From Escherichia phage ST0, in sequence record MF044457: a stretch of 64,000 bases of DNA; one strand, 5' to 3'. Within the stretch, counting starts at the first letter, position 1. Every line of letters begins with the position of its first letter. A model generated the notes under the pieces. The model was not told where the DNA came from and did not search any database. It worked only from the letters and a program-made list of their open reading frames with translations. Shown one piece after another: positions 6,801 through 15,579 of the stretch. A program made the position numbers and the translations under genes.

Positions 6801-7973
6801 ATGTCTGATTTAAAATCTCGTCTGATTAAAGCTTCTACTTCTAAAATGACTGCAGACTTGACTAAGTCTAAGCTGTTTAATAATCGTGATGAAGTCCCTA
6901 CTCGTATTCCGATGTTGAATATTGCATTAGGTGGTGCACTGAATGCCGGGTTGCAATCAGGCTTAACTATTTTTGCTGCTCCTTCTAAACACTTTAAAAC
7001 GTTGTTTGGACTGACCATGGTTGCAGCATATATGAAGAAATATAAAGATGCAATCTGTTTGTTCTATGATTCAGAATTTGGTGCTTCAGAATCTTATTTT
7101 CGTTCAATGGGTGTTGATTTAGACCGTGTAGTTCATACTCCGATTCAATCTGTCGAACAACTTAAAGTTGATATGACTAATCAGCTTGACGCTATTGAAC
7201 GCGGTGATAAAGTTATTATCTTTATCGATTCAATCGGTAATACTGCATCTAAGAAAGAAACTGAAGATGCATTGAACGAGAAAGTTGTAGGTGATATGTC
7301 TCGTGCTAAGGCACTTAAATCTCTGTTCCGCATTGTGACTCCTTATCTGACTATTAAAGATATTCCATGTGTTGCAATCAACCATACAGCAATGGAAATC
7401 GGTGGATTGTATCCTAAAGAGATTATGGGTGGTGGTACAGGTATTCTTTACTCTGCTAACACTGTATTCTTTATCTCTAAACGTCAGGTTAAAGAAGGTA
7501 CAGAATTGACCGGTTATGACTTCACGTTGAAAGCAGAAAAATCTCGCACCGTTAAAGAAAAATCTACTTTCCCAATCACGGTTAATTTTGATGGCGGTAT
7601 TGACCCATTCAGTGGCTTGTTAGAAATGGCAACTGAAATTGGTTTTGTGGTTAAGCCTAAAGCTGGGTGGTATGCTCGTGAATTTCTTGACGAAGAAACA
7701 GGTGAAATGATTCGTGAAGAAAAATCATGGCGTGCTAAAGCTACTGATTGTGTAGAATTCTGGGGGCCGTTGTTTAAACACAAACCTTTCCGAGATGCAA
7801 TTGAAACTAAATATAAACTAGGTGCTATCTCTTCTATTAAAGAAGTTGATGACGCTGTTAACGACCTTATTAATTGCAAAGCAACAACTAAAGTTCCGGT
7901 TAAAACTTCTGATGCTCCGTCTGCAGCAGATATAGAAAACGACCTTGACGAAATGGAAGATTTCGATGAATAA
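6801..7973 (+). CDS. uvsX: UvsX RecA-like recombinase
   Basis: 390 aa; near-collinear with T4 UvsX as I recall it (MSDLKSRLIKASTSK..., GWYAREFLDEETGEMIREEKSWRAK). Confidence 0.95.
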   Translation: MSDLKSRLIKASTSKMTADLTKSKLFNNRDEVPTRIPMLNIALGGALNAGLQSGLTIFAAPSKHFKTLFGLTMVAAYMKKYKDAICLFYDSEFGASESYFRSMGVDLDRVVHTPIQSVEQLKVDMTNQLDAIERGDKVIIFIDSIGNTASKKETEDALNEKVVGDMSRAKALKSLFRIVTPYLTIKDIPCVAINHTAMEIGGLYPKEIMGGGTGILYSANTVFFISKRQVKEGTELTGYDFTLKAEKSRTVKEKSTFPITVNFDGGIDPFSGLLEMATEIGFVVKPKAGWYAREFLDEETGEMIREEKSWRAKATDCVEFWGPLFKHKPFRDAIETKYKLGAISSIKEVDDAVNDLINCKATTKVPVKTSDAPSAADIENDLDEMEDFDE

Positions 7974-8316: not shown

Positions 8317-9759
8317 GTGGTAGAAATTATTTTGTCTCATCTAGTATATGACCAGGCTTATTTTTCTAAGGTCTGGCCTTATATGGATTCTGAGTATTTT
8401 GAGCGTGGACCGGCAAAAAATGTCTTTAAAATTATAAAGAGCCACGTTAACGAATATAATGCAATGCCGTCTATCAATGCATTAAAGGTGGCTTTAGATA
8501 ACAGTTCTTTAACTGAAGCCGAATATAAAGGAACTTCAGATCTAATTGAAAAATTGGCTGATACTCCTGAAGACCACGAATGGTTGGTTAAAGAAACTGA
8601 GAAATATGTCCAGCAAAAAGCGATGTATAACGCTACGTCTAAAATCATTGAGATTCAGTCTAATGCTGAACTACCTCCAGAACAACGTAACAAGAAAATG
8701 CCTGACGTAGGAGCTATTCCTGATATTATGCGTCAAGCACTTTCAATTTCGTTTGATAGTTATGTTGGACACGACTGGATGGAAGACTATGAAGCACGCT
8801 GGCTTTCTTATCTAAACAAAGCACGTAAGGTCCCGTTCAAATTAAACATTCTGAATAAAATCACTAAAGGTGGTGCTGAAACCGGTACACTGAATGTTTT
8901 AATGGCTGGTGTTAACGTCGGTAAATCTTTAGGCCTTTGTTCACTTGCTGCGGATTATCTTCAAACAGGTCATAATGTTCTTTATATTTCCATGGAAATG
9001 GCTGAAGAAGTTTGTGCTAAGCGTATAGATGCAAACATGCTTGACGTATCACTCGATGATATTGATGATGGTAACGTATCTTATGCTGAATATAAAGCCA
9101 AGATGGAAAAATGGCGTTCAAAATCCACATTAGGACGTTTAGTAGTTAAACAGTATCCTACTGGTGGAGCTAATGCTAATACATTCCGTGCATTGCTTAA
9201 TGAATTGAAACTCAAGAAGAACTTTGTGCCATCTGTAATCATGGTTGATTACTTAGGTATTTGTGGGTCTTGTCGTATCAGAGTTTACACTGAAAATAGT
9301 TACACATTAGTTAAAGCTATCGCAGAAGAACTTCGTGCATTAGCAGTAGAATCTGAAACAGTTCTATGGACTGCAGCTCAAGTAGGACGTGCAGCATGGG
9401 ATGCTTCGGATATGAACATGAGTGATATTGCAGAATCAGCAGGTTTACCAGCAACGGCAGATTTCATGTTGGCCGTAATTGAAACCGAAGAACTTGCACA
9501 AGCTGAACAACAACTTATCAAACAAATCAAATCACGATACGGCGATAAGAATAAGTGGAATAAATTCCTGATGGGTGTACGTAAAGGCAACCAAAAATGG
9601 ATTGAGATTGAGCAAGAAGGCATGAACACATCTAACACAGTAAATGAAAACGCAGGTGCCCAGATGCGTCAGGCAGAGGTGAATCGTACGGAACGCGTAG
9701 GTAAAGCCAAAGCAACACGTGCTGACCTAGATAGCTTAGCCAATGAGTTAAAATTTTAA
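8317..9759 (+). CDS. 41: gp41 replicative DNA helicase (DnaB-like)
   Basis: 480 aa with GTG start; MVEIILSHLVYDQAYFSKVWPYMDSEYFE and Walker A GVNVGKS match T4 gp41. Confidence 0.95.
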   Translation: MVEIILSHLVYDQAYFSKVWPYMDSEYFERGPAKNVFKIIKSHVNEYNAMPSINALKVALDNSSLTEAEYKGTSDLIEKLADTPEDHEWLVKETEKYVQQKAMYNATSKIIEIQSNAELPPEQRNKKMPDVGAIPDIMRQALSISFDSYVGHDWMEDYEARWLSYLNKARKVPFKLNILNKITKGGAETGTLNVLMAGVNVGKSLGLCSLAADYLQTGHNVLYISMEMAEEVCAKRIDANMLDVSLDDIDDGNVSYAEYKAKMEKWRSKSTLGRLVVKQYPTGGANANTFRALLNELKLKKNFVPSVIMVDYLGICGSCRIRVYTENSYTLVKAIAEELRALAVESETVLWTAAQVGRAAWDASDMNMSDIAESAGLPATADFMLAVIETEELAQAEQQLIKQIKSRYGDKNKWNKFLMGVRKGNQKWIEIEQEGMNTSNTVNENAGAQMRQAEVNRTERVGKAKATRADLDSLANELKF

Positions 9760-9765
9760 TAAAAA

Positions 9766-9781
9766 GGAGACTTCGGTCTCC
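9766..9781 (+). terminator. UUCG-tetraloop hairpin terminator after gene 41
   Basis: GGAGAC-TTCG-GTCTCC followed by TTTCGGGG. Confidence 0.6.
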
Positions 9782-9847
9782 TTTCGGGGTTTACATCTTC
9801 CTCTAGGCATGATATGATGTACTTACACAAACCAAGAGGAAAACACT

Positions 9848-10222
9848 ATGAATATGTCTCAAGCAATTTTTACTGCAATCACCGAAAACACAACTGTTGA
9901 AGTAGTTTCTCCGCCGGCAACCTACGTTATTCTTGCTCCTAAAACTATTGTATCTCGTATGGAAAACATGGGCAAACGTATCGTACAAATTGTTGGAGCC
10001 GGAAATCAAAAACTTGATTATCTGCGAACCATCAAAGCTTATGAACATTTCCAACTCGAAAAAGGTTCTCCTATCCAGGTAGAACTCGTAAATGGTGATA
10101 TCGTTCGAGCAATGTTCCATCATTTCTATGCATTGAATGACCCATCTAAAGCGGTTCGTTTAATTGCATATGACGCAAACCAAAACGAAATCAACGCAGA
10201 TATATCTAAATTACATTTTTAA
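9848..10222 (+). CDS. hypothetical early protein
   Basis: ORF track 124 aa; RBS AGAGGA upstream. Confidence 0.5.
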   Translation: MNMSQAIFTAITENTTVEVVSPPATYVILAPKTIVSRMENMGKRIVQIVGAGNQKLDYLRTIKAYEHFQLEKGSPIQVELVNGDIVRAMFHHFYALNDPSKAVRLIAYDANQNEINADISKLHF

Positions 10223-10223
10223 G

Positions 10224-10252
10224 TTTACTTCTCCAGTAGTTGTGTTATTATA
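10224..10252 (+). promoter_or_regulatory. early promoter (GTTTAC -35, TATTAT -10)
   Basis: GTTTAC, 17 bp spacer, TATTAT, then AGACCTATCA extension. Confidence 0.55.
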
Positions 10253-10277
10253 GACCTATCAACTACCGGAGAACAAA

Positions 10278-10595
10278 ATGAAAACCATCGATTGTAAAGC
10301 AGAATTTAAGATTTTTTATCACGGTTCAAGTAGTTCAGCTAACATCGAAAACATGCTTTGTCCTCCTGAGGAAACAGGAGTTCTGTCTGAAACTGGACGT
10401 AAGAAAAACTTGGATCGTGTATTCTTTACTGAAGATATCGGTTTAGCAAAGATTTATGCAGGACGAGCAGCACGCTCTTATGGAGGTGAACCACGTCTCT
10501 ATCGAGTAATTTCTCCGGTAGACGTAGTTCAAATGAATAATACTAAAGGTGCTACAGTTTATCACGCTGAATGGGCATTTTGCGAGGAAATATGA
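10278..10595 (+). CDS. hypothetical early protein
   Basis: ORF track 105 aa; RBS GGAGAA. Confidence 0.5.
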   Translation: MKTIDCKAEFKIFYHGSSSSANIENMLCPPEETGVLSETGRKKNLDRVFFTEDIGLAKIYAGRAARSYGGEPRLYRVISPVDVVQMNNTKGATVYHAEWAFCEEI

Positions 10596-10783
10596 GCAAA
10601 TTAACTAAAGTTACTTTTATTGGCTGGTTTAAAAGCGGTGAGATGTTCACTAAAGATATCATGTTATCAGGTGATCGCGAAGAAATCGAGTGGGTTACGG
10701 TACAACTTGCTGAAGTGAACAACGCATTAGTTAAAGCATTTGTTAATGACGAGAAAGTTTTTGAAGCTGATTTCAGAGGATAA
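10592..10783 (+). CDS. hypothetical small protein
   Basis: Start moved to ATG at 10592 overlapping the upstream stop (ATGA). Confidence 0.4.
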   Translation: MSKLTKVTFIGWFKSGEMFTKDIMLSGDREEIEWVTVQLAEVNNALVKAFVNDEKVFEADFRG

Positions 10784-10784
10784 T

Positions 10785-10997
10785 ATGTATTCAACTGTGT
10801 TTAAACCATCAACATACGAATTTGCATCAACTACACAATGGAAAGCTCTTATTCTGGAAGGATGGGAACTAATGATGGACTGTGAAGCATCTGAAAAGTT
10901 TCCACACGGCAAAGTGGACTTCGTTAAATTTGCTGTACGTCCGACTAAACGACAGATTCGTCAAGAAAAACGCAAATTTCGCAAAAGTTTAAAATAA
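10785..10997 (+). CDS. hypothetical small basic protein
   Basis: Start moved to ATG at 10785, 2 nt after the upstream stop. Confidence 0.4.
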   Translation: MYSTVFKPSTYEFASTTQWKALILEGWELMMDCEASEKFPHGKVDFVKFAVRPTKRQIRQEKRKFRKSLK

Positions 10998-11000
10998 CTG

Positions 11001-11030
11001 TTTACAAGCACCACATACTGTGTTACTATC
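11001..11030 (+). promoter_or_regulatory. early promoter
   Basis: GTTTAC, about 18 bp, TACTAT. Confidence 0.5.
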
Positions 11031-11057
11031 TTTTTATCAACTACAGAGGAAATTAAA

Positions 11058-11426
11058 ATGAAAAAATTAATCGCTTTAACAATGATATTTGGATTAACCG
11101 GATGTGGTGCCCATGGCTTTATCCCTAATAACGTTGGCCAACTGATTTACAATCCGAATGTTAAACAGTATGACCAACCTAAAGTTGAAGTGGAAGACCC
11201 GGTTACTGTAGGTAATCGAATGGTTCAAGCTGATGCCCATGCTCAACGTTATCGTGACTCTGATACTGTAGCATTGCCAAAAGAACAACGCGTTAAAGAA
11301 CATTGTCTACAGGCTACTGAAATCGCATTCATTCGCTATGTTGAAACAACCGGTAAAGAGCCCACCCAGAAACAAATCGCAAATAACTACGTCCAGTGTA
11401 TTGAACGTTTAAACAAATTTAACTAA
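11058..11426 (+). CDS. putative lipoprotein
   Basis: 122 aa; signal peptide MKKLIALTMIFGLTGC with lipobox LTGC. Confidence 0.6.
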   Translation: MKKLIALTMIFGLTGCGAHGFIPNNVGQLIYNPNVKQYDQPKVEVEDPVTVGNRMVQADAHAQRYRDSDTVALPKEQRVKEHCLQATEIAFIRYVETTGKEPTQKQIANNYVQCIERLNKFN

Positions 11427-11429
11427 TTG

Positions 11430-11459
11430 GTTTACACCAAAGTTAAAATAAGATATTAT
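11430..11459 (+). promoter_or_regulatory. early promoter
   Basis: GTTTAC, about 18 bp, TATTAT. Confidence 0.5.
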
Positions 11460-11487
11460 AAACATAACAAATCAAGAGGAAATTAAC

Positions 11488-11736
11488 ATGGAATTATTCG
11501 TAGCTAGTTCAGTAGCGGTTTTAATCGCAGGTATTGGTTCAATCATCATTTACATGTTGCCTTGGGTAATCGCACTTATTCGTGGCACAAAAAGCACAAC
11601 AGCAATCTTCTTTGTATCTTTACTCTTTAACTGGACGATGGTTGGTTGGATTGGAACTTTAATTTGGTCTATCGTTGCCGAAAAGAAATCTGCTCAGCAG
11701 CCTCAACAAGTAATTATTATTCGCGAAAAAGAATAA
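11488..11736 (+). CDS. small integral membrane protein (two predicted TM helices)
   Basis: 82 aa; two long hydrophobic segments; RBS AGAGGA. Confidence 0.6.
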   Translation: MELFVASSVAVLIAGIGSIIIYMLPWVIALIRGTKSTTAIFFVSLLFNWTMVGWIGTLIWSIVAEKKSAQQPQQVIIIREKE

Positions 11737-11740
11737 ACTT

Positions 11741-11770
11741 GTTTACATTATAGATGGACTATAGTATAGT
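11741..11770 (+). promoter_or_regulatory. early promoter
   Basis: GTTTAC, about 18 bp, TATAGT, then TAGTCCTATCA extension. Confidence 0.55.
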
Positions 11771-11799
11771 AGTCCTATCAAATCAACTAAGGAGTTAAA

Positions 11800-12093
11800 A
11801 TGAAAAAGTTATCATTGGCAGCAATCTTACTCGCAGTATCATGTGCACCAGCTCCAGTTACGGCAGGTTATGATAAAGACCTCTGTGAGTGGTCAATGAC
11901 TGCAAATCAAGAAGATGTTGAACAACAAATCTTCTCTGATATCATGAACATCACTAAACGAGACCGTCCTAATATGGTTAATAAAGTTGTTGAACAACTT
12001 AAGTCTGGCGGTATCATGCAGTACAATTATGTTTTGTATTGTGACCCTAATTTCGATAACAAAGATATCGTAACCGAAATCACAGGTGAATAA
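11800..12093 (+). CDS. secreted periplasmic protein, possibly spackle (Sp)-like
   Basis: 97 aa with N-terminal signal peptide MKKLSLAAILLAVSCAPAPVTA; size and signal peptide match T4 Sp (97 aa precursor). Sequence match is from vague recall only. Confidence 0.55.
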   Translation: MKKLSLAAILLAVSCAPAPVTAGYDKDLCEWSMTANQEDVEQQIFSDIMNITKRDRPNMVNKVVEQLKSGGIMQYNYVLYCDPNFDNKDIVTEITGE

Positions 12094-12094
12094 T

Positions 12095-12745
12095 ATGATT
12101 TATTACATGCACAAAAACGCGCCATTTAAATATGGTAAATTTCCTAATGCACAATGTTATAATATAACGCCGAACGAAAATAATAACGGATACCATATTG
12201 GTGTAATTTTTGTAATTGTTAAAGATAACGAAATCGTTGCCTGGGCAGATTTTAAAGGTACAACGTATGATGTTAATCCGGTGCCTTTCACATATTACAA
12301 TATAATGGATTTGGCATATGATTATAATTGGTTTAATCATGACGCGTTGGCTCATATTGAAGGTGTAGGATTTGACATCTCTTATTCTAGCTATTCATTA
12401 TGTCCTATGAGCCGAGCTCACGGTAAAGATGCATCATATCTTTCATTTCGGAAACGCGTAAACTTCAAACGTAGTACAGAGTATGTTGGTGGTCTCTTTG
12501 TTAAAGATAATAAAATAACCCGTATTAGTTATCCTTTAAGTGTAGGTCAAAAAGATGTTGATGTTGATTTAGACTTAACCGAAAATAACATTAATCGTAT
12601 TGCTTCTGTATATTTTGATATCGATGAAAAAATTGTAGTGTGTGGATACGAATTACCACCTGAAGAAAAGGCTGAAGCAATCGAAGTCGAATTAGAAATT
12701 TCTGTTGATGACCAAATATTTAATGCATTTATGAATCGAGGTTAA
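12095..12745 (+). CDS. hypothetical protein
   Basis: ORF track 12086..12745 (GTG); start moved to ATG at 12095 just after the upstream stop. Confidence 0.5.
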   Translation: MIYYMHKNAPFKYGKFPNAQCYNITPNENNNGYHIGVIFVIVKDNEIVAWADFKGTTYDVNPVPFTYYNIMDLAYDYNWFNHDALAHIEGVGFDISYSSYSLCPMSRAHGKDASYLSFRKRVNFKRSTEYVGGLFVKDNKITRISYPLSVGQKDVDVDLDLTENNINRIASVYFDIDEKIVVCGYELPPEEKAEAIEVELEISVDDQIFNAFMNRG

Positions 12746-12746
12746 A

Positions 12747-12944
12747 ATGACTACTGCAATTTGCACTGGTTCTAAAATTAGTGTTTTTACAAGTTTTGAA
12801 GATTATGAAGTTGTTTCAAAACACCAATACCATATTAGCGTAAAAGCTAATGACGGTGTAATTTGGAATATTCCACAGTATGAAGGCACTACGTATGAAG
12901 TCACAGATATAAATGGTGACAAAGCAATCTTTGTAATTGATTAA
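12747..12944 (+). CDS. hypothetical small protein
   Basis: ORF track 65 aa; starts 2 nt after the upstream stop. Confidence 0.4.
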   Translation: MTTAICTGSKISVFTSFEDYEVVSKHQYHISVKANDGVIWNIPQYEGTTYEVTDINGDKAIFVID

Positions 12945-12963
12945 ATATACTCAGGAGGTACCT

Positions 12964-13431
12964 ATGGGTATTATTAACACTGCAATAGATTCTGTTTATG
13001 CATATAAGTTTATTCGACTAATGCAAAAACCTTTTACCGAATGGAAAGCATACGAAGCCAAAATCATCGATGAACGTGGAAGTGTTCTTAAACGTCCTTC
13101 TACTCCCGAAGAAAAAGCGGCTTATACACCTTTTCATGCTTCAGTTCGTTCAATGAAGCGAATGATGAGCACTGTTCCAGGTCTTAATGGAATGGCCTCA
13201 ATGATGTCTGCCTGGAGTGCTGTAGCTTCACGCTATAACATTACGGAAGAACAACAGAAAGAAATATTTAAAGAACTCCCTTTATTTGAGGATATGGTTG
13301 CTGGTGATTCAGGTGGCAGCTCTCAAGCTATTGCATCAGGAACAACTACAGGTGCAGTCGTAAATAAAGGTCCAGAACAAATTCCTTCCAAGAAAAGAAA
13401 GCGAATTAAAGTAAATATTAATAAGTTGTGA
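12964..13431 (+). CDS. hypothetical protein
   Basis: ORF track 12937..13431; start moved to ATG at 12964 preceded by AGGAGG. Confidence 0.5.
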   Translation: MGIINTAIDSVYAYKFIRLMQKPFTEWKAYEAKIIDERGSVLKRPSTPEEKAAYTPFHASVRSMKRMMSTVPGLNGMASMMSAWSAVASRYNITEEQQKEIFKELPLFEDMVAGDSGGSSQAIASGTTTGAVVNKGPEQIPSKKRKRIKVNINKL

Positions 13432-13470
13432 TATGATGGCCTTATTAATTTAAGGCCTCTGGAGAATACT

Positions 13471-14493
13471 ATGGCTGAATGGATAGATAATGAATTTGCT
13501 TATCGTGCGTTTTCTCACCTACCTCGTTTTAGACAAATCAATAATTCAAGCACATTTAAATTAACATTTCGTTGTCCAGTTTGTGGCGACTCCCAGACAG
13601 ATGCAATGAAAGCTCGCGGATGGTATTACGGCGGTACTCCTGGTAATGTACATTGCTATAATTGTCAATACCACAATACAATTTCCGGATACTTAAAAGA
13701 ATATGACGAAGAGCTTTATCGCGAATATCTAATGGAAGTTCGTAAAGAAAAAGCTAGAATGGAACCAAAGATTGAAAAGGTTCCTGAAACTAAGCCGGAG
13801 CCAGAGAAAAAGACTATAAATTCTTTGCCGTCTTGTTCTCGTCTGGACAAGCTGCCTGAAGAGCATCCTATTGTGAAATATGTTAAGTCTCGATGCATTC
13901 CTAAAGAATCATGGAACAGATTATGGTTCACATTAGAATGGCCTAAATTGGTCAACAAGATTCAACCTGGTACGTATAAGAAAGAGATTCCCGAACCACG
14001 TTTAGTGATTCCTATTTTTAATAAAGACGGGAAGGCTGAGTCATTCCAAGGACGTGCACTTCGTAAAGATGCTCCTCAGAAATATATCACTATTAAAGCG
14101 TTTGAGTCTGCAACAAAAATTTATGGTGTTGAACGTGTTAAGGAAGGAGACGTCTGGGTAATGGAAGGCCCTATTGATAGTTTATTCATACCCAATGCAA
14201 TCGCTATTACAGGCGGCTCAATAGATTTAGATGTAGTACCATTTAAAGAACGTCGGGTATGGGTAATGGATAATGAACCTAGGCATCCGGATACTATAGC
14301 TCGCATGAAGCGATTAGTTGATGCAGGCGAACGTGTCATGTTCTGGGACCGAGCTCCGTGGAGATCAAAGGATGTGAATGATATGGTAATGAAAGAAAAT
14401 GCAACACCACAAGAAATTTTAGAATATATGAAACAGAATATTTCAAGTGGGTTGCATGCTAAAATGAGATTATCTCGTTATTCTAAGATTTAA
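13471..14493 (+). CDS. 61: gp61 DNA primase
   Basis: 340 aa; zinc ribbon CPVCGD...CYNCQY and near-identity with remembered T4 gp61 (FKLTFRCPVCGDSQTD, RVWVMDNEPRHPDTIARMKRLVDAGERVMFWD). Confidence 0.95.
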   Translation: MAEWIDNEFAYRAFSHLPRFRQINNSSTFKLTFRCPVCGDSQTDAMKARGWYYGGTPGNVHCYNCQYHNTISGYLKEYDEELYREYLMEVRKEKARMEPKIEKVPETKPEPEKKTINSLPSCSRLDKLPEEHPIVKYVKSRCIPKESWNRLWFTLEWPKLVNKIQPGTYKKEIPEPRLVIPIFNKDGKAESFQGRALRKDAPQKYITIKAFESATKIYGVERVKEGDVWVMEGPIDSLFIPNAIAITGGSIDLDVVPFKERRVWVMDNEPRHPDTIARMKRLVDAGERVMFWDRAPWRSKDVNDMVMKENATPQEILEYMKQNISSGLHAKMRLSRYSKI

Positions 14494-14687
14494 ACAAGCC
14501 CTATAATAGCAAATGCCAAATCAACTACAGTATCCAATGGAACAGAAGGAACCATAACACCATGGGCAACTAACAATGGCGCAATCCCGAAGTTCCATGA
14601 AATAATGCCACCTACAACTATTGCGGCGATAGCAGTTTTCTTTTTATTGCCTTTAATAGCGTTGATTAACGATGGAAGTTTAAACAT
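14490..14687 (-). CDS. small hydrophobic membrane protein encoded antisense to the surrounding early genes
   Basis: 65 aa; strong RBS AAGGAGA 5 nt upstream of ATG on the minus strand; two hydrophobic stretches. Confidence 0.5.
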   Translation of the reverse strand: MFKLPSLINAIKGNKKKTAIAAIVVGGIISWNFGIAPLLVAHGVMVPSVPLDTVVDLAFAIIGLV

Positions 14688-14775
14688 AATATCTCCTTAG
14701 TTACCTATTATTTATTACGCTTTATAAAATTAATGTTAGAATTAACTCTCTTATACTGAATTGAAAGGAAAAATA

Positions 14776-15297
14776 ATGGCACACTTTAACGAATGTTCAC
14801 AACTTATTTCTGGTGTTGATAAAGCAGAAGAAGCTTATTTTAATGCTCTGATTCACGAAGATAAAGACCCACTGCAGGTAATGCTTGATATGCAGAAATC
14901 TTTACAGGTTCGTCTGGCAAATGACAAGCCTGAACATAACAAACATCCTGATGAATTGGCCACTGCTGGTGATGTTGTTGATTGGCTGCGTAATCAGAAA
15001 GATTATATTGATGATGAATTCCGTGAACTGCTGACTTCACTTGGTGGTATGAGCAATGGTGAAAAAGCCGCTAGCTCTGTATGGAAACCGTGGAAGGCGC
15101 AACACGCTGAATATCGAAATCGTCGTATCGATGAACTGTCTCCTGAAGACCAGCTTGAAATTAAATTCGAGATGATTGATATTCTACATTTCGTTCTAAA
15201 TATGTTCCAAGGTCTAGGACTTTCTGCTGAAGAAATCTTCAAACTGTATTACCTGAAAAACCAACACAACTTTGAACGCCAGGATAATGGTTACTAA
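14776..15297 (+). CDS. 56: gp56 dCTP pyrophosphatase (MazG-like dCTPase/dUTPase)
   Basis: ORF track starts at a TTG at 14761; ATG at 14776 gives MAHFNECSQLI... matching the remembered T4 gp56 N-terminus; RELLTSLGGMSNGEK and EIKFEMIDILHFVLNMF conserved. Confidence 0.85.
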   Translation: MAHFNECSQLISGVDKAEEAYFNALIHEDKDPLQVMLDMQKSLQVRLANDKPEHNKHPDELATAGDVVDWLRNQKDYIDDEFRELLTSLGGMSNGEKAASSVWKPWKAQHAEYRNRRIDELSPEDQLEIKFEMIDILHFVLNMFQGLGLSAEEIFKLYYLKNQHNFERQDNGY

Positions 15298-15303
15298 TTA
15301 AGT

Positions 15304-15311
15304 TATAAATA
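15304..15311 (+). promoter_or_regulatory. late promoter TATAAATA upstream of soc
   Basis: Exact TATAAATA about 30 nt upstream of the soc start. Confidence 0.6.
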
Positions 15312-15342
15312 CACCTGTAATTAAACAACAAAGGAGTTAATT

Positions 15343-15579
15343 ATGGGTGGTTATGTAAACATCAAAACCTTTACGCATCCTGCTGGTGAAGGTAAAGAAG
15401 TTAAAGGTATGGAAGTTTCTGTGCCGTTTGAGATTTATTCAAACGAACATCGGATTGCAGATTCTCATTACCAAATCTTTCCATCAGAAAAGGCAGCATA
15501 TTCTACTGTAGTTTCTGATGCAGCTGATTGGAAAACTAAGAACGCTGCAATGTTTACGCCTACAGCAGTAAGTGGTTAA
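15343..15579 (+). CDS. soc: Soc small outer capsid protein
   Basis: 78 aa; GYVNIKTF...HYQIFPSEKAAYSTV matches remembered T4 Soc. Confidence 0.9.
   Translation: MGGYVNIKTFTHPAGEGKEVKGMEVSVPFEIYSNEHRIADSHYQIFPSEKAAYSTVVSDAADWKTKNAAMFTPTAVSG

Follow-up and report, generated by a model that had tools for sequence, protein, structure and literature searches.

Between the helicase gene 41 and the primase gene 61 of Escherichia phage ST0 (sequence record MF044457) lies a block of ten small genes that we interpret, with high confidence, as an accessory island of RB69-like (Mosigvirus) phages combining toxin inhibitors with superinfection-exclusion proteins. The stretch of DNA analyzed here, hereafter the window, comprises 64,000 nucleotides (nt) of this record; within it, exactly ten plus-strand open reading frames (ORFs) fill positions 9848–13431, from gene 41 (8317–9759) to gene 61 (13471–14493), and every one of them has a Shine-Dalgarno sequence of the GAGG/GGAG type. 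A preliminary description of this DNA had placed ten small genes in this interval—all of which are present—and had proposed some of them as candidates for superinfection exclusion or anti-defense. The genes that can be identified, namely those for Imm, Spackle, Dmd, TifA, and AdfA, are of exactly this kind; orthologs with unrelated functions would have spoken against the proposal, and the opposite was found, with orthologs acting in exclusion and toxin inhibition.

In the mechanism we envisage, host sigma-70 RNA polymerase would read five T4-type early promoters right after infection, giving rise to two sets of proteins. The first set would consist of cytoplasmic inhibitors acting stoichiometrically on host toxin–antitoxin (TA) abortive-infection systems—Dmd would block the RnlA/LsoA RNases, TifA would block the ToxN RNase, and AdfA would bind DarT DNA ADP-ribosyltransferases, with the R164 allele present here expected not to neutralize E. 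coli DarT1. The second set would be made up of envelope proteins that exclude later-arriving T-even phages: Imm, in the inner membrane, would stop DNA entry, and Spackle, exported to the periplasm via its signal peptide, would bind and inhibit the lysozyme domain of gp5, the tail-spike protein of the incoming phage.

The block itself is already known—it is annotated in RB69 and has been partly tested in RB69 and T4—and, with half its genes having experimentally characterized orthologs, is of little importance in its own right. The case mainly indicates that signal peptides, lipoboxes, and early promoters, read off the bare sequence, can lead correctly to genes for exclusion and anti-defense, the earlier observation being partly confirmed and its interpretation supported.

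Gene content relative to RB69 and T4

The window derives from an RB69-like Mosigvirus, with region 9760–13470 being 98.1% identical to RB69 at the DNA level. This region is matched by 404 phage records, 153 of which cover at least 80% of it at 95–99% DNA identity; among the matches listed, all are RB69-like Escherichia or Shigella phages, and the records opened are classed as Mosigvirus. The RB69 annotation fits the ten ORFs one-to-one (ORF041c, ORF040c, dmd, 61.4, imm.1, imm, sp, 61.2, ORF033c, and ORF032c plus 61.1), with ten genes in identical order in the RB69 interval (RB69p041–RB69p031; NC_004928, 17278–20986) and protein identities of 96–100% across the block. The two differ in the last gene, which is a single ORF of 155 amino acids (aa) in the window but is split into ORF032c and 61.1 in the RB69 reference. 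Curated Pfam models recognized six of the ten proteins above cutoff, with PHROGs in agreement; searches of Pfam, NCBIfam, and PDB sequences returned no usable match for ORF041c, ORF040c, ORF033c, or the long form of 61.1, and the PDB search yielded no solved homolog for AdfA or TifA. A search of positions 9000–15500 against Rfam found no family and a single sub-threshold miRNA match. The block is preceded on its 5′ side by uvsX (6801–7973), gene 40, and gene 41, and followed on its 3′ side by gene 61 and gene 56.

Comparison with the 61.x region, proposed earlier as a check, therefore gave a gene-for-gene match to RB69, and it revealed a common layout with T4. The T4 interval contains five genes, in the order 41-dmd-61.4-sp-61.2-61.1-61, the 61.x genes lying between 41 and 61; the T4 record thus bears out the statement that the counterpart region encodes Dmd and spackle. 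The flanks and the order of the five common genes match between the T4 anti-TA island/spackle region and the window, with early promoters before dmd and sp, and the five common proteins share 57–72% identity (compared with 85% for gp41 and 74% for gp61 in the flanks). Relative to T4, the window carries additional genes both 5′ of dmd (ORF041c and ORF040c) and further downstream (ORF033c), and it has the imm.1-imm pair between tifA and sp, whereas in T4 this pair lies between genes 43 and 42; as a result, imm and sp are adjacent in the window but about 6 kb apart in T4. Individual genes differ as well: 61.1 encodes 155 aa (54 aa in T4), the C-terminal extension of T4 TifA is missing from the window protein, and AdfA has R in place of H at position 164.

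Among the toxin inhibitors, Dmd (63 aa; 10592–10783, on the plus strand like all genes of the block) is predicted to be an antitoxin-like inhibitor of the RnlA/LsoA RNase toxins. The protein matches PF17587 over profile positions 3–60 of 60 (4e-21; 75.6 bits, cutoff 27), is identical to the chain in PDB 5i8j at 62 of 63 residues, also matches T4 Dmd (5hy3_B), to which it is 57% identical, and has no hydrophobic segment. T4 Dmd binds and inhibits RnlA/LsoA (PMC9391042 citing Otsuka and Yonesaki; PDB 5hy3). Directly after dmd comes tifA (61.4; 10785–10997), whose 70-aa product contains a central cluster of basic residues (RPTKRQIRQEKRKFRK), matches DUF7279 at 3.5e-20, and is 57% identical to T4 TifA; by its 100% identity to RB69 gp61.4, it would be a ToxN inhibitor. 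Srikant et al. 2022 (PMC9391042) renamed 61.4 as tifA for its product, a protein inhibitor of ToxN, and reported that the RB69 homolog also inhibits ToxN, apparently more potently; in the same work the region is termed an anti-TA island, comprising tifA, dmd (against RnlA), and adfA (61.2, against DarT).

The third inhibitor, anti-DarT factor A (AdfA; 61.2), is encoded at 12095–12745 and has 216 aa, or 212 aa from the RB69-annotated start at 12107. It matches PF23813 across profile positions 1–211 of 211 (1.3e-120, 400.9 bits) and is 98.6% identical to RB69 AdfA and 66% identical to T4 AdfA. AdfA was discovered in RB69, where the wild-type protein with Arg164 neither binds nor neutralizes DarT1, whereas His164 variants do both (PMC11257639). 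At this position (RB69 numbering) the protein carries Arg (NINRIAS), compared with His in T4, such that the protein of the window, although a member of the family, is predicted to be inactive against the E. coli DarT1 tested in that study. Resistance of ST0 to DarTG1, if any, would consequently need other factors, for example AdfN (PMC11257639), the product of gene 30.3, which is located beyond the window.

As had been read from the raw sequence, three consecutive genes encode envelope proteins—a lipoprotein with the lipobox LTGC (Imm.1), a protein with two transmembrane segments (Imm), and a protein with a signal peptide (Spackle)—and a lipobox, two hydrophobic segments, and a signal-peptide-like N-terminus were all found. 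Imm (82 aa; 11488–11736) is a predicted inner-membrane superinfection immunity protein, with hydrophobic segments at residues 1–34 and 40–59, a match to PF14373 (Imm_superinfect; 1.8e-15; 56.9 bits, cutoff 27.9), and 64% identity to T4 Imm. The sp gene (61.3; 11800–12093) encodes Spackle itself (97 aa), predicted to be periplasmic and to inhibit the gp5 tail lysozyme: it matches PF25676 (T4_Spackle) over profile positions 1–96 of 96 (1.1e-42) and the solved structure of T4 Spackle (PDB 6x6o) at 1.4e-39, and aligns with T4 Sp gap-free at 66% identity. Its N-terminus is hydrophobic from residue 4 to 24 and ends in VTA|G, opposite AMA|G of T4 Sp in the alignment, the signal peptide being judged by heuristics rather than by a dedicated predictor. 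T4 Spackle inhibits the gp5 tail lysozyme in the periplasm and, together with Imm, brings about superinfection exclusion; both its disulfide (Cys29–Cys81) and its contacts with the gp5 lysozyme (Ser32, Met33, Thr34, Ala35, Gln37, and Asn76) have been named (PMC7677548); all eight of these residues (Cys29, Cys81, S32, M33, T34, A35, Q37, N76) are identical in the window. Taken together, the window proteins show full-length homology to the T4 Imm/Spackle system (PMC7677548; Lu and Henning), with matching predicted topology and signal peptide; in the literature searched, we found no exclusion tests of RB69-type Imm or Spackle.

The lipoprotein gene imm.1 (11058–11426) encodes 122 aa with a hydrophobic N-terminus, the lipoprotein cysteine at Cys16, and Gly at the +2 position. 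Imm.1 matches DUF5481 at 1.3e-8 (35.6 bits, cutoff 27), is 31% identical to T4 Imm.1, and forms just six clusters in a set of 5.8 billion proteins. An AlphaFold2 model built on the shallow alignment reached a pLDDT of 59 and was confident only in the C-terminal helical hairpin.

Early promoters and cassette structure

The promoters of the block, like the identity and sequence features of its genes and its cassette structure, can be seen directly in the DNA. Searching for T4-type early promoters as GTTTAC, a 16–17-nt spacer, and a TATAAT-like hexamer, we found 22 on the plus strand and 4 on the minus strand of the 64-kb window, compared with a first-order Markov expectation of 1.6. Of the 22, five belong to the block (3.6 kb), one in each of its five intergenic gaps, all on the plus strand: P1 (9789–9818; GTTTACA, 17-nt spacer, TATGAT), which drives ORF041c; P2 (10223–10251; GTTTACT, 16-nt spacer, TATTAT), ahead of ORF040c-dmd-tifA; P3 (11000–11029; GTTTACA, 17-nt spacer, TACTAT), ahead of imm.1; P4 (11430–11459; GTTTACA, 17-nt spacer, TATTAT), ahead of imm; and P5 (11741–11770; GTTTACA, 17-nt spacer, TATAGT), driving sp-adfA-ORF033c-61.1. 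The GTTTAC/TATAAT promoters described previously were therefore recovered in their GTTTAC part, well in excess of expectation, whereas an exact TATAAT occurs in none of the five.

Within the presumptive operons the genes are tightly packed—the stop of ORF040c and the start of dmd overlap by 4 nt (ATGA), and gaps of 1 nt separate dmd from tifA, sp from adfA, and adfA from ORF033c. This packing, together with the placement of the five promoters in the gaps, indicates five predicted transcription units: ORF041c, ORF040c-dmd-tifA, imm.1, imm, and sp-adfA-ORF033c-61.1. The idea that each gene or gene pair has its own promoter does not survive this count, there being five promoters for ten genes in units of 1, 3, 1, 1, and 4 genes. 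An early promoter has also been reported for the T4 dmd-tifA operon, homologous to that of the window (PMC9391042). We found no MotA-box middle promoter and no late promoter within the block.

ORF041c, ORF040c, imm.1, and imm are preceded by copies of one stretch, 64–94% identical, that extends from the −10 region across the leader as far as the Shine-Dalgarno sequence (9827–9842, 10241–10273, 11019–11051, and 11449–11481) and contains a motif like TATCAACTAC.GAGGAA. Direct and inverted repeats in the block consist only of these common promoter-leader-Shine-Dalgarno sequences plus chance matches, and the short leader repeats could act as recombination substrates. A stem-loop at 9763–9784 (plus strand; 9-bp stem, UUCG loop), directly 3′ of gene 41, is terminator-like with a weak U-tract, and the RNA fold over 9755–9800 has −12.9 kcal/mol; a second, GC-rich hairpin of 7–9 bp at 13435–13459 (plus strand; RNA fold −12.0 kcal/mol) follows 61.1, just ahead of the gene 61 Shine-Dalgarno sequence. 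Neither hairpin matches any Rfam family.

These arrangements recall the PeSL cassettes, mobile promoter–terminator elements of T4-type phages, in which a stem-loop is followed by an early promoter (PMC2839356, PMC4122927). All five promoters of the window fit the PST/T4 −35 consensus TTTACW; relative to the published spacer of about N17 (PMC4122927), four are at N17 and one at N16; and the published −10 sequence TAYWAT fits three of the five hexamers, with TATGAT and TATAGT each off at one position. The layout differs, however, in that only P1 is preceded by a stem-loop, with the hairpin at 9763–9784 and the promoter beginning at 9789, whereas P2–P5 come directly after a stop codon. On the basis of this layout, the stem-loop and P1 are best described as a putative PeSL-type unit.

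The label "hypervariable" that had been attached to the block holds for gene content and fails for sequence. Within Mosigvirus, the sequence is kept at 95–99% DNA identity over 153 genomes, with two genes behaving as cassettes. The RB69-type tifA occurs in 67 records, compared with 153 for the whole block, and is cleanly deleted in PHB12 and LF82-16; in PHB12 the deletion (window 10774–10987) also takes the last residue of Dmd. ORF041c is absent from LF82-16, where the junction (L006 336–351) runs from just after the −35 GTTTAC of P1 (9795) to the −10 region of P2 (10243). The ORF041c cassette is thus bounded by two early promoters, which suggests that it is gained or lost via recombination between them, and such promoter-bounded presence and absence matches published descriptions of the hyperplastic regions of T4-type phages, where modules undergo PeSL-mediated shuffling (PMC4122927, PMC2839356).

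Between genera, the 41–61 interval changes more thoroughly. Dhakavirus WG01 has eight genes (an ADP-ribosyltransferase [ART] gene homologous to ORF040c, dmd, an extra ORF, 61.4, sp, a different ORF33, an ORF033c homolog, and a short 61.1), Kanagawavirus KLB31 has the ART gene plus five unrelated small ORFs, and in Acinetobacter phage 133 the interval contains roughly a dozen ORFs, among them the ART gene and a long 61.1. The interval is hyperplastic in gene content rather than hypervariable in sequence, and the window represents the "full," ten-gene version of the island, in which tifA and ORF041c are cassettes, bounded by promoters, that are gained and lost.

The location of these genes between helicase and primase could alternatively mean that the block is replication-associated and that its small genes encode replisome accessory factors, as might the conservation of the long 61.1 across T4-like phages immediately 5′ of the primase gene. 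We consider this highly improbable: five of the ten genes have orthologs of demonstrated non-replicative function, which refutes the idea for the block as a whole, the content of the interval is swapped wholesale between genera with the replisome unchanged, and tifA and ORF041c are dispensable within the genus. Our own interpretation as an island of toxin inhibitors and exclusion proteins also has points that weigh against it. The biochemical activities it invokes come from experiments on RB69 and T4 orthologs and would be expected to hold for ST0 by extrapolation; for Spackle and Imm, function has been established only in T4, to whose proteins those of the window are 66% and 64% identical; and the R164 allele of AdfA is inactive on the single DarT1 tested. 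Half of the genes (imm.1, ORF040c, ORF041c, ORF033c, and the long 61.1) are without demonstrated function, and the term "anti-defense island" is therefore proven for at most half of the block. Finally, nearly all T4-like phages have the long 61.1, which adjoins the primase gene and may therefore not belong with the anti-defense genes.

More specifically, Imm.1, Imm, and Sp could form one dedicated, three-part exclusion module, in which Imm.1, as an outer-membrane lipoprotein, might work like T5 Llp or Cor by obstructing a receptor or a step in the periplasm—a reading that we regard as rather doubtful. The imm.1-imm pair is adjacent both in T4 (between 43 and 42) and in the window (between tifA and sp), which implies that the two genes moved together; this adjacency, kept across the translocation, suggests a functional link without proving it, and in Mosigvirus the pair stands directly beside sp. 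Under the standard Lol sorting rule, lipoproteins with Gly at +2 go to the outer membrane, a location that the lipobox of Imm.1 would accordingly predict, and the Imm.1 family is restricted to Mosigvirus and Tequatrovirus, clades that also carry imm. On the other hand, imm.1, imm, and sp each have their own promoter, imm.1-imm is about 6 kb from sp in T4, and Lu and Henning reportedly obtained partial exclusion with cloned imm or sp alone, which counts against a module of three parts. Moreover, the Imm.1 homolog P0122 lacks the lipobox cysteine, the structure prediction for Imm.1 is too poor for comparing its fold with those of receptor blockers or lysozyme inhibitors, and our literature search found no study of its function.

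ORF040c and the ADP-ribosyltransferase fold

The first gene of the dmd-tifA unit, ORF040c (10278–10595), is translationally coupled to dmd and encodes a 105-aa protein with a minimal ART fold of the Arr clade. Its fold matches include an Arr chain (9iaf, 140 residues) at 19% identity and, scoring equally well, Tpt1, as well as AcrIF11. Arr (PF12120), Tpt1/KptA, and AcrIF11 are small ARTs of the H-Y type, from which ORF040c differs in being shorter and in lacking a direct match to a profile hidden Markov model: no match to the Pfam family Arr-ms (PF12120) was found at an E-value of 0.1, only 2 of 32 family members reached 0.12 on this model, and searches of PDB sequences with the single sequence and with a profile returned no match. 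A profile search of 1.84 billion representatives, by contrast, gave 224 matches, many of which are domains of about 95 aa inside proteins of 500–3900 aa, often at or near the C-terminus. Among the proteins that the profile finds at about 1e-24 to 1e-28 are P0137, P0154, and P0133, whose matched regions score 26.9–29.4 bits on Arr-ms (cutoff 25); because these matches themselves pass the Arr-ms cutoff, ORF040c is linked to the family by transitive homology. The partner domains in the multidomain homologs—ART-PolyVal, NUDIX, CHAP, GNAT, and Toprim—are those of the polyvalent proteins found in phages and conjugative elements, which have been read as phage or plasmid effectors in host conflict (PMC5512222).

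Across the wide family, His15-Gly16, Tyr60, and a basic loop (E38, R41, K43, N44) are invariant, whereas E103, although invariant in the T4-like subfamily, varies outside it, so that a third, acidic catalytic residue cannot be assigned. An initial view of ORF040c as a strict H-Y-E enzyme was dropped on account of this variation in the wider alignment.

ORF040c has 140 close homologs in a large protein set and occurs in 608 phage genomes from many T4-like genera, nearly all at identities of at least 64%, with homologs in the compared loci at L008 3474–3797, L010 3062–3379, and L007 3525–3815. Just 214 of the records are from Escherichia phages, far fewer than the several hundred Tequatrovirus genomes recovered in the Imm.1 and TifA searches, and in T4, where ORF040c is absent, only a short stretch separates gene 41 from dmd; for these reasons, we take the gene to be missing from Tequatrovirus. 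Between distant T4-like phages it is better conserved than the flanking replication proteins: identity to the Acinetobacter phage 133 homolog is 73% (gp41, 57%), to that of WG01 89% (gp41, 68%; gp61, 62%), and to that of KLB31 82% (gp61, 62%). Certain GenBank records already name its homologs "ADP-ribosyl transferase"; in the literature that could be searched, we found no functional study of ORF040c or of Arr-like phage ARTs, and a survey of viral NAD+ and ADP-ribose enzymes mentions Arr-family ARTs only for actinobacterial and Sinorhizobium phages (PMC9503650).

We tentatively raise the possibility that ORF040c is an active, minimal Arr-clade ART that modifies a conserved host target and serves as the fourth, enzymatic member of the dmd-tifA counter-defense operon. 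The target may be a defense or housekeeping macromolecule, or a small molecule, that is highly conserved in the host. We base this on the conservation of ORF040c above that of helicase and primase across T4-like phages of Escherichia, Klebsiella, Acinetobacter, and Aeromonas, on its absence from T4, and on the recurrence of the domain in polyvalent-like multidomain proteins. A competing explanation is that ORF040c is a true rifamycin-resistance enzyme, orthologous to Arr, which would shield the host RNA polymerase used by the phage and would have no macromolecular target in the host. Remote homologs do exceed the Pfam cutoff for Arr-ms, very high conservation over host genera would suit a conserved small-molecule substrate, and Arr-family ARTs of other phages have been interpreted in this way (PMC9503650). 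Yet ORF040c itself has no Arr-ms match at an E-value of 0.1 and, at 105 aa, is only 19% identical to the 140-residue Arr chain, the nucleic-acid-acting Tpt1 scores equally well and the protein-modifying anti-CRISPR AcrIF11 also matches, the domain occurs in polyvalent-type proteins (PMC5512222), and the gene shares its transcript with two anti-toxin genes. We thus judge rifamycin resistance unlikely and a macromolecular or counter-defense role more likely. As a weaker addition to the counter-defense reading, the lipoprotein Imm.1 may be a third exclusion factor, acting with Imm. ORF040c lends itself to concrete, inexpensive experiments, the phage system being well developed.

ORF041c, ORF033c, 61.1, and neighboring features

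ORF041c (9848–10222) encodes a cytoplasmic protein of 124 aa and is an optional cassette restricted to Mosigvirus. The protein is 98% identical to RB69ORF041c and belongs to phrog_10668, to which no function is attached; Pfam, NCBIfam, and PDB gave no match. It is essentially genus-specific, occurring in 131 phage records at identities of at least 95%, plus 2 distant ones. ORF033c (12747–12944; 65 aa; phrog_3249) was found in 261 phage records, mainly of Mosigvirus and Dhakavirus.

The long form of 61.1 (12964–13431; 155 aa) corresponds to RB69 ORF032c and 61.1 as one ORF and lies directly 5′ of the primase gene. It matches phrog_2086 at 2e-73 and is found in 1463 phage records; in 589 of these, the match spans at least 80% of the query, as it does in Acinetobacter phage 133, whose protein is 56% identical, close to the 57% of gp41. 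The same single 155-aa ORF is present in GADS24, HX01, PHB12, LF82-16, and Acinetobacter phage 133, whereas in RB69 (L001 5704–6170) ORF032c and 61.1 are annotated as two overlapping ORFs; the RB69 reference probably carries a frameshift here, whether real or a sequencing error. T4 gp61.1 (54 aa) represents the C-terminal third of the long form only, the C-terminal 40 aa of which are 72% identical to it. The start of T4 gp61.1 (L003 4967–5131), MKTFKEFIKE, resembles MKTYQEFIAE, which we take to be the capsid-targeting sequence of T4 internal proteins; the window's long 61.1 carries the equivalent residues internally (QKEIFKELPLFED) rather than at its N-terminus. Several GenBank records name 61.1 homologs "major capsid" or "head morphogenesis" protein. 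Our literature search found no functional study of gp61.1 or ORF041c.

Just beyond the block, the minus strand carries a hydrophobic ORF of 65 aa (14490–14687) that shares 4 nt with the 3′ end of gene 61. RB69 (ORF029w), Klebsiella phage KLB31 (MVRL031, "transmembrane"), and WG01 (ORF29) each have a small reverse-strand ORF at the corresponding position, making this a conserved, antisense-oriented small membrane gene amid an otherwise one-directional early region. Lastly, some RefSeq names for proteins of the block look spurious, including "iduronate sulfatase" for Imm.1 (T4, HX01), "DNA polymerase" for TifA (HX01), and "major capsid protein" for 61.1 (several records).

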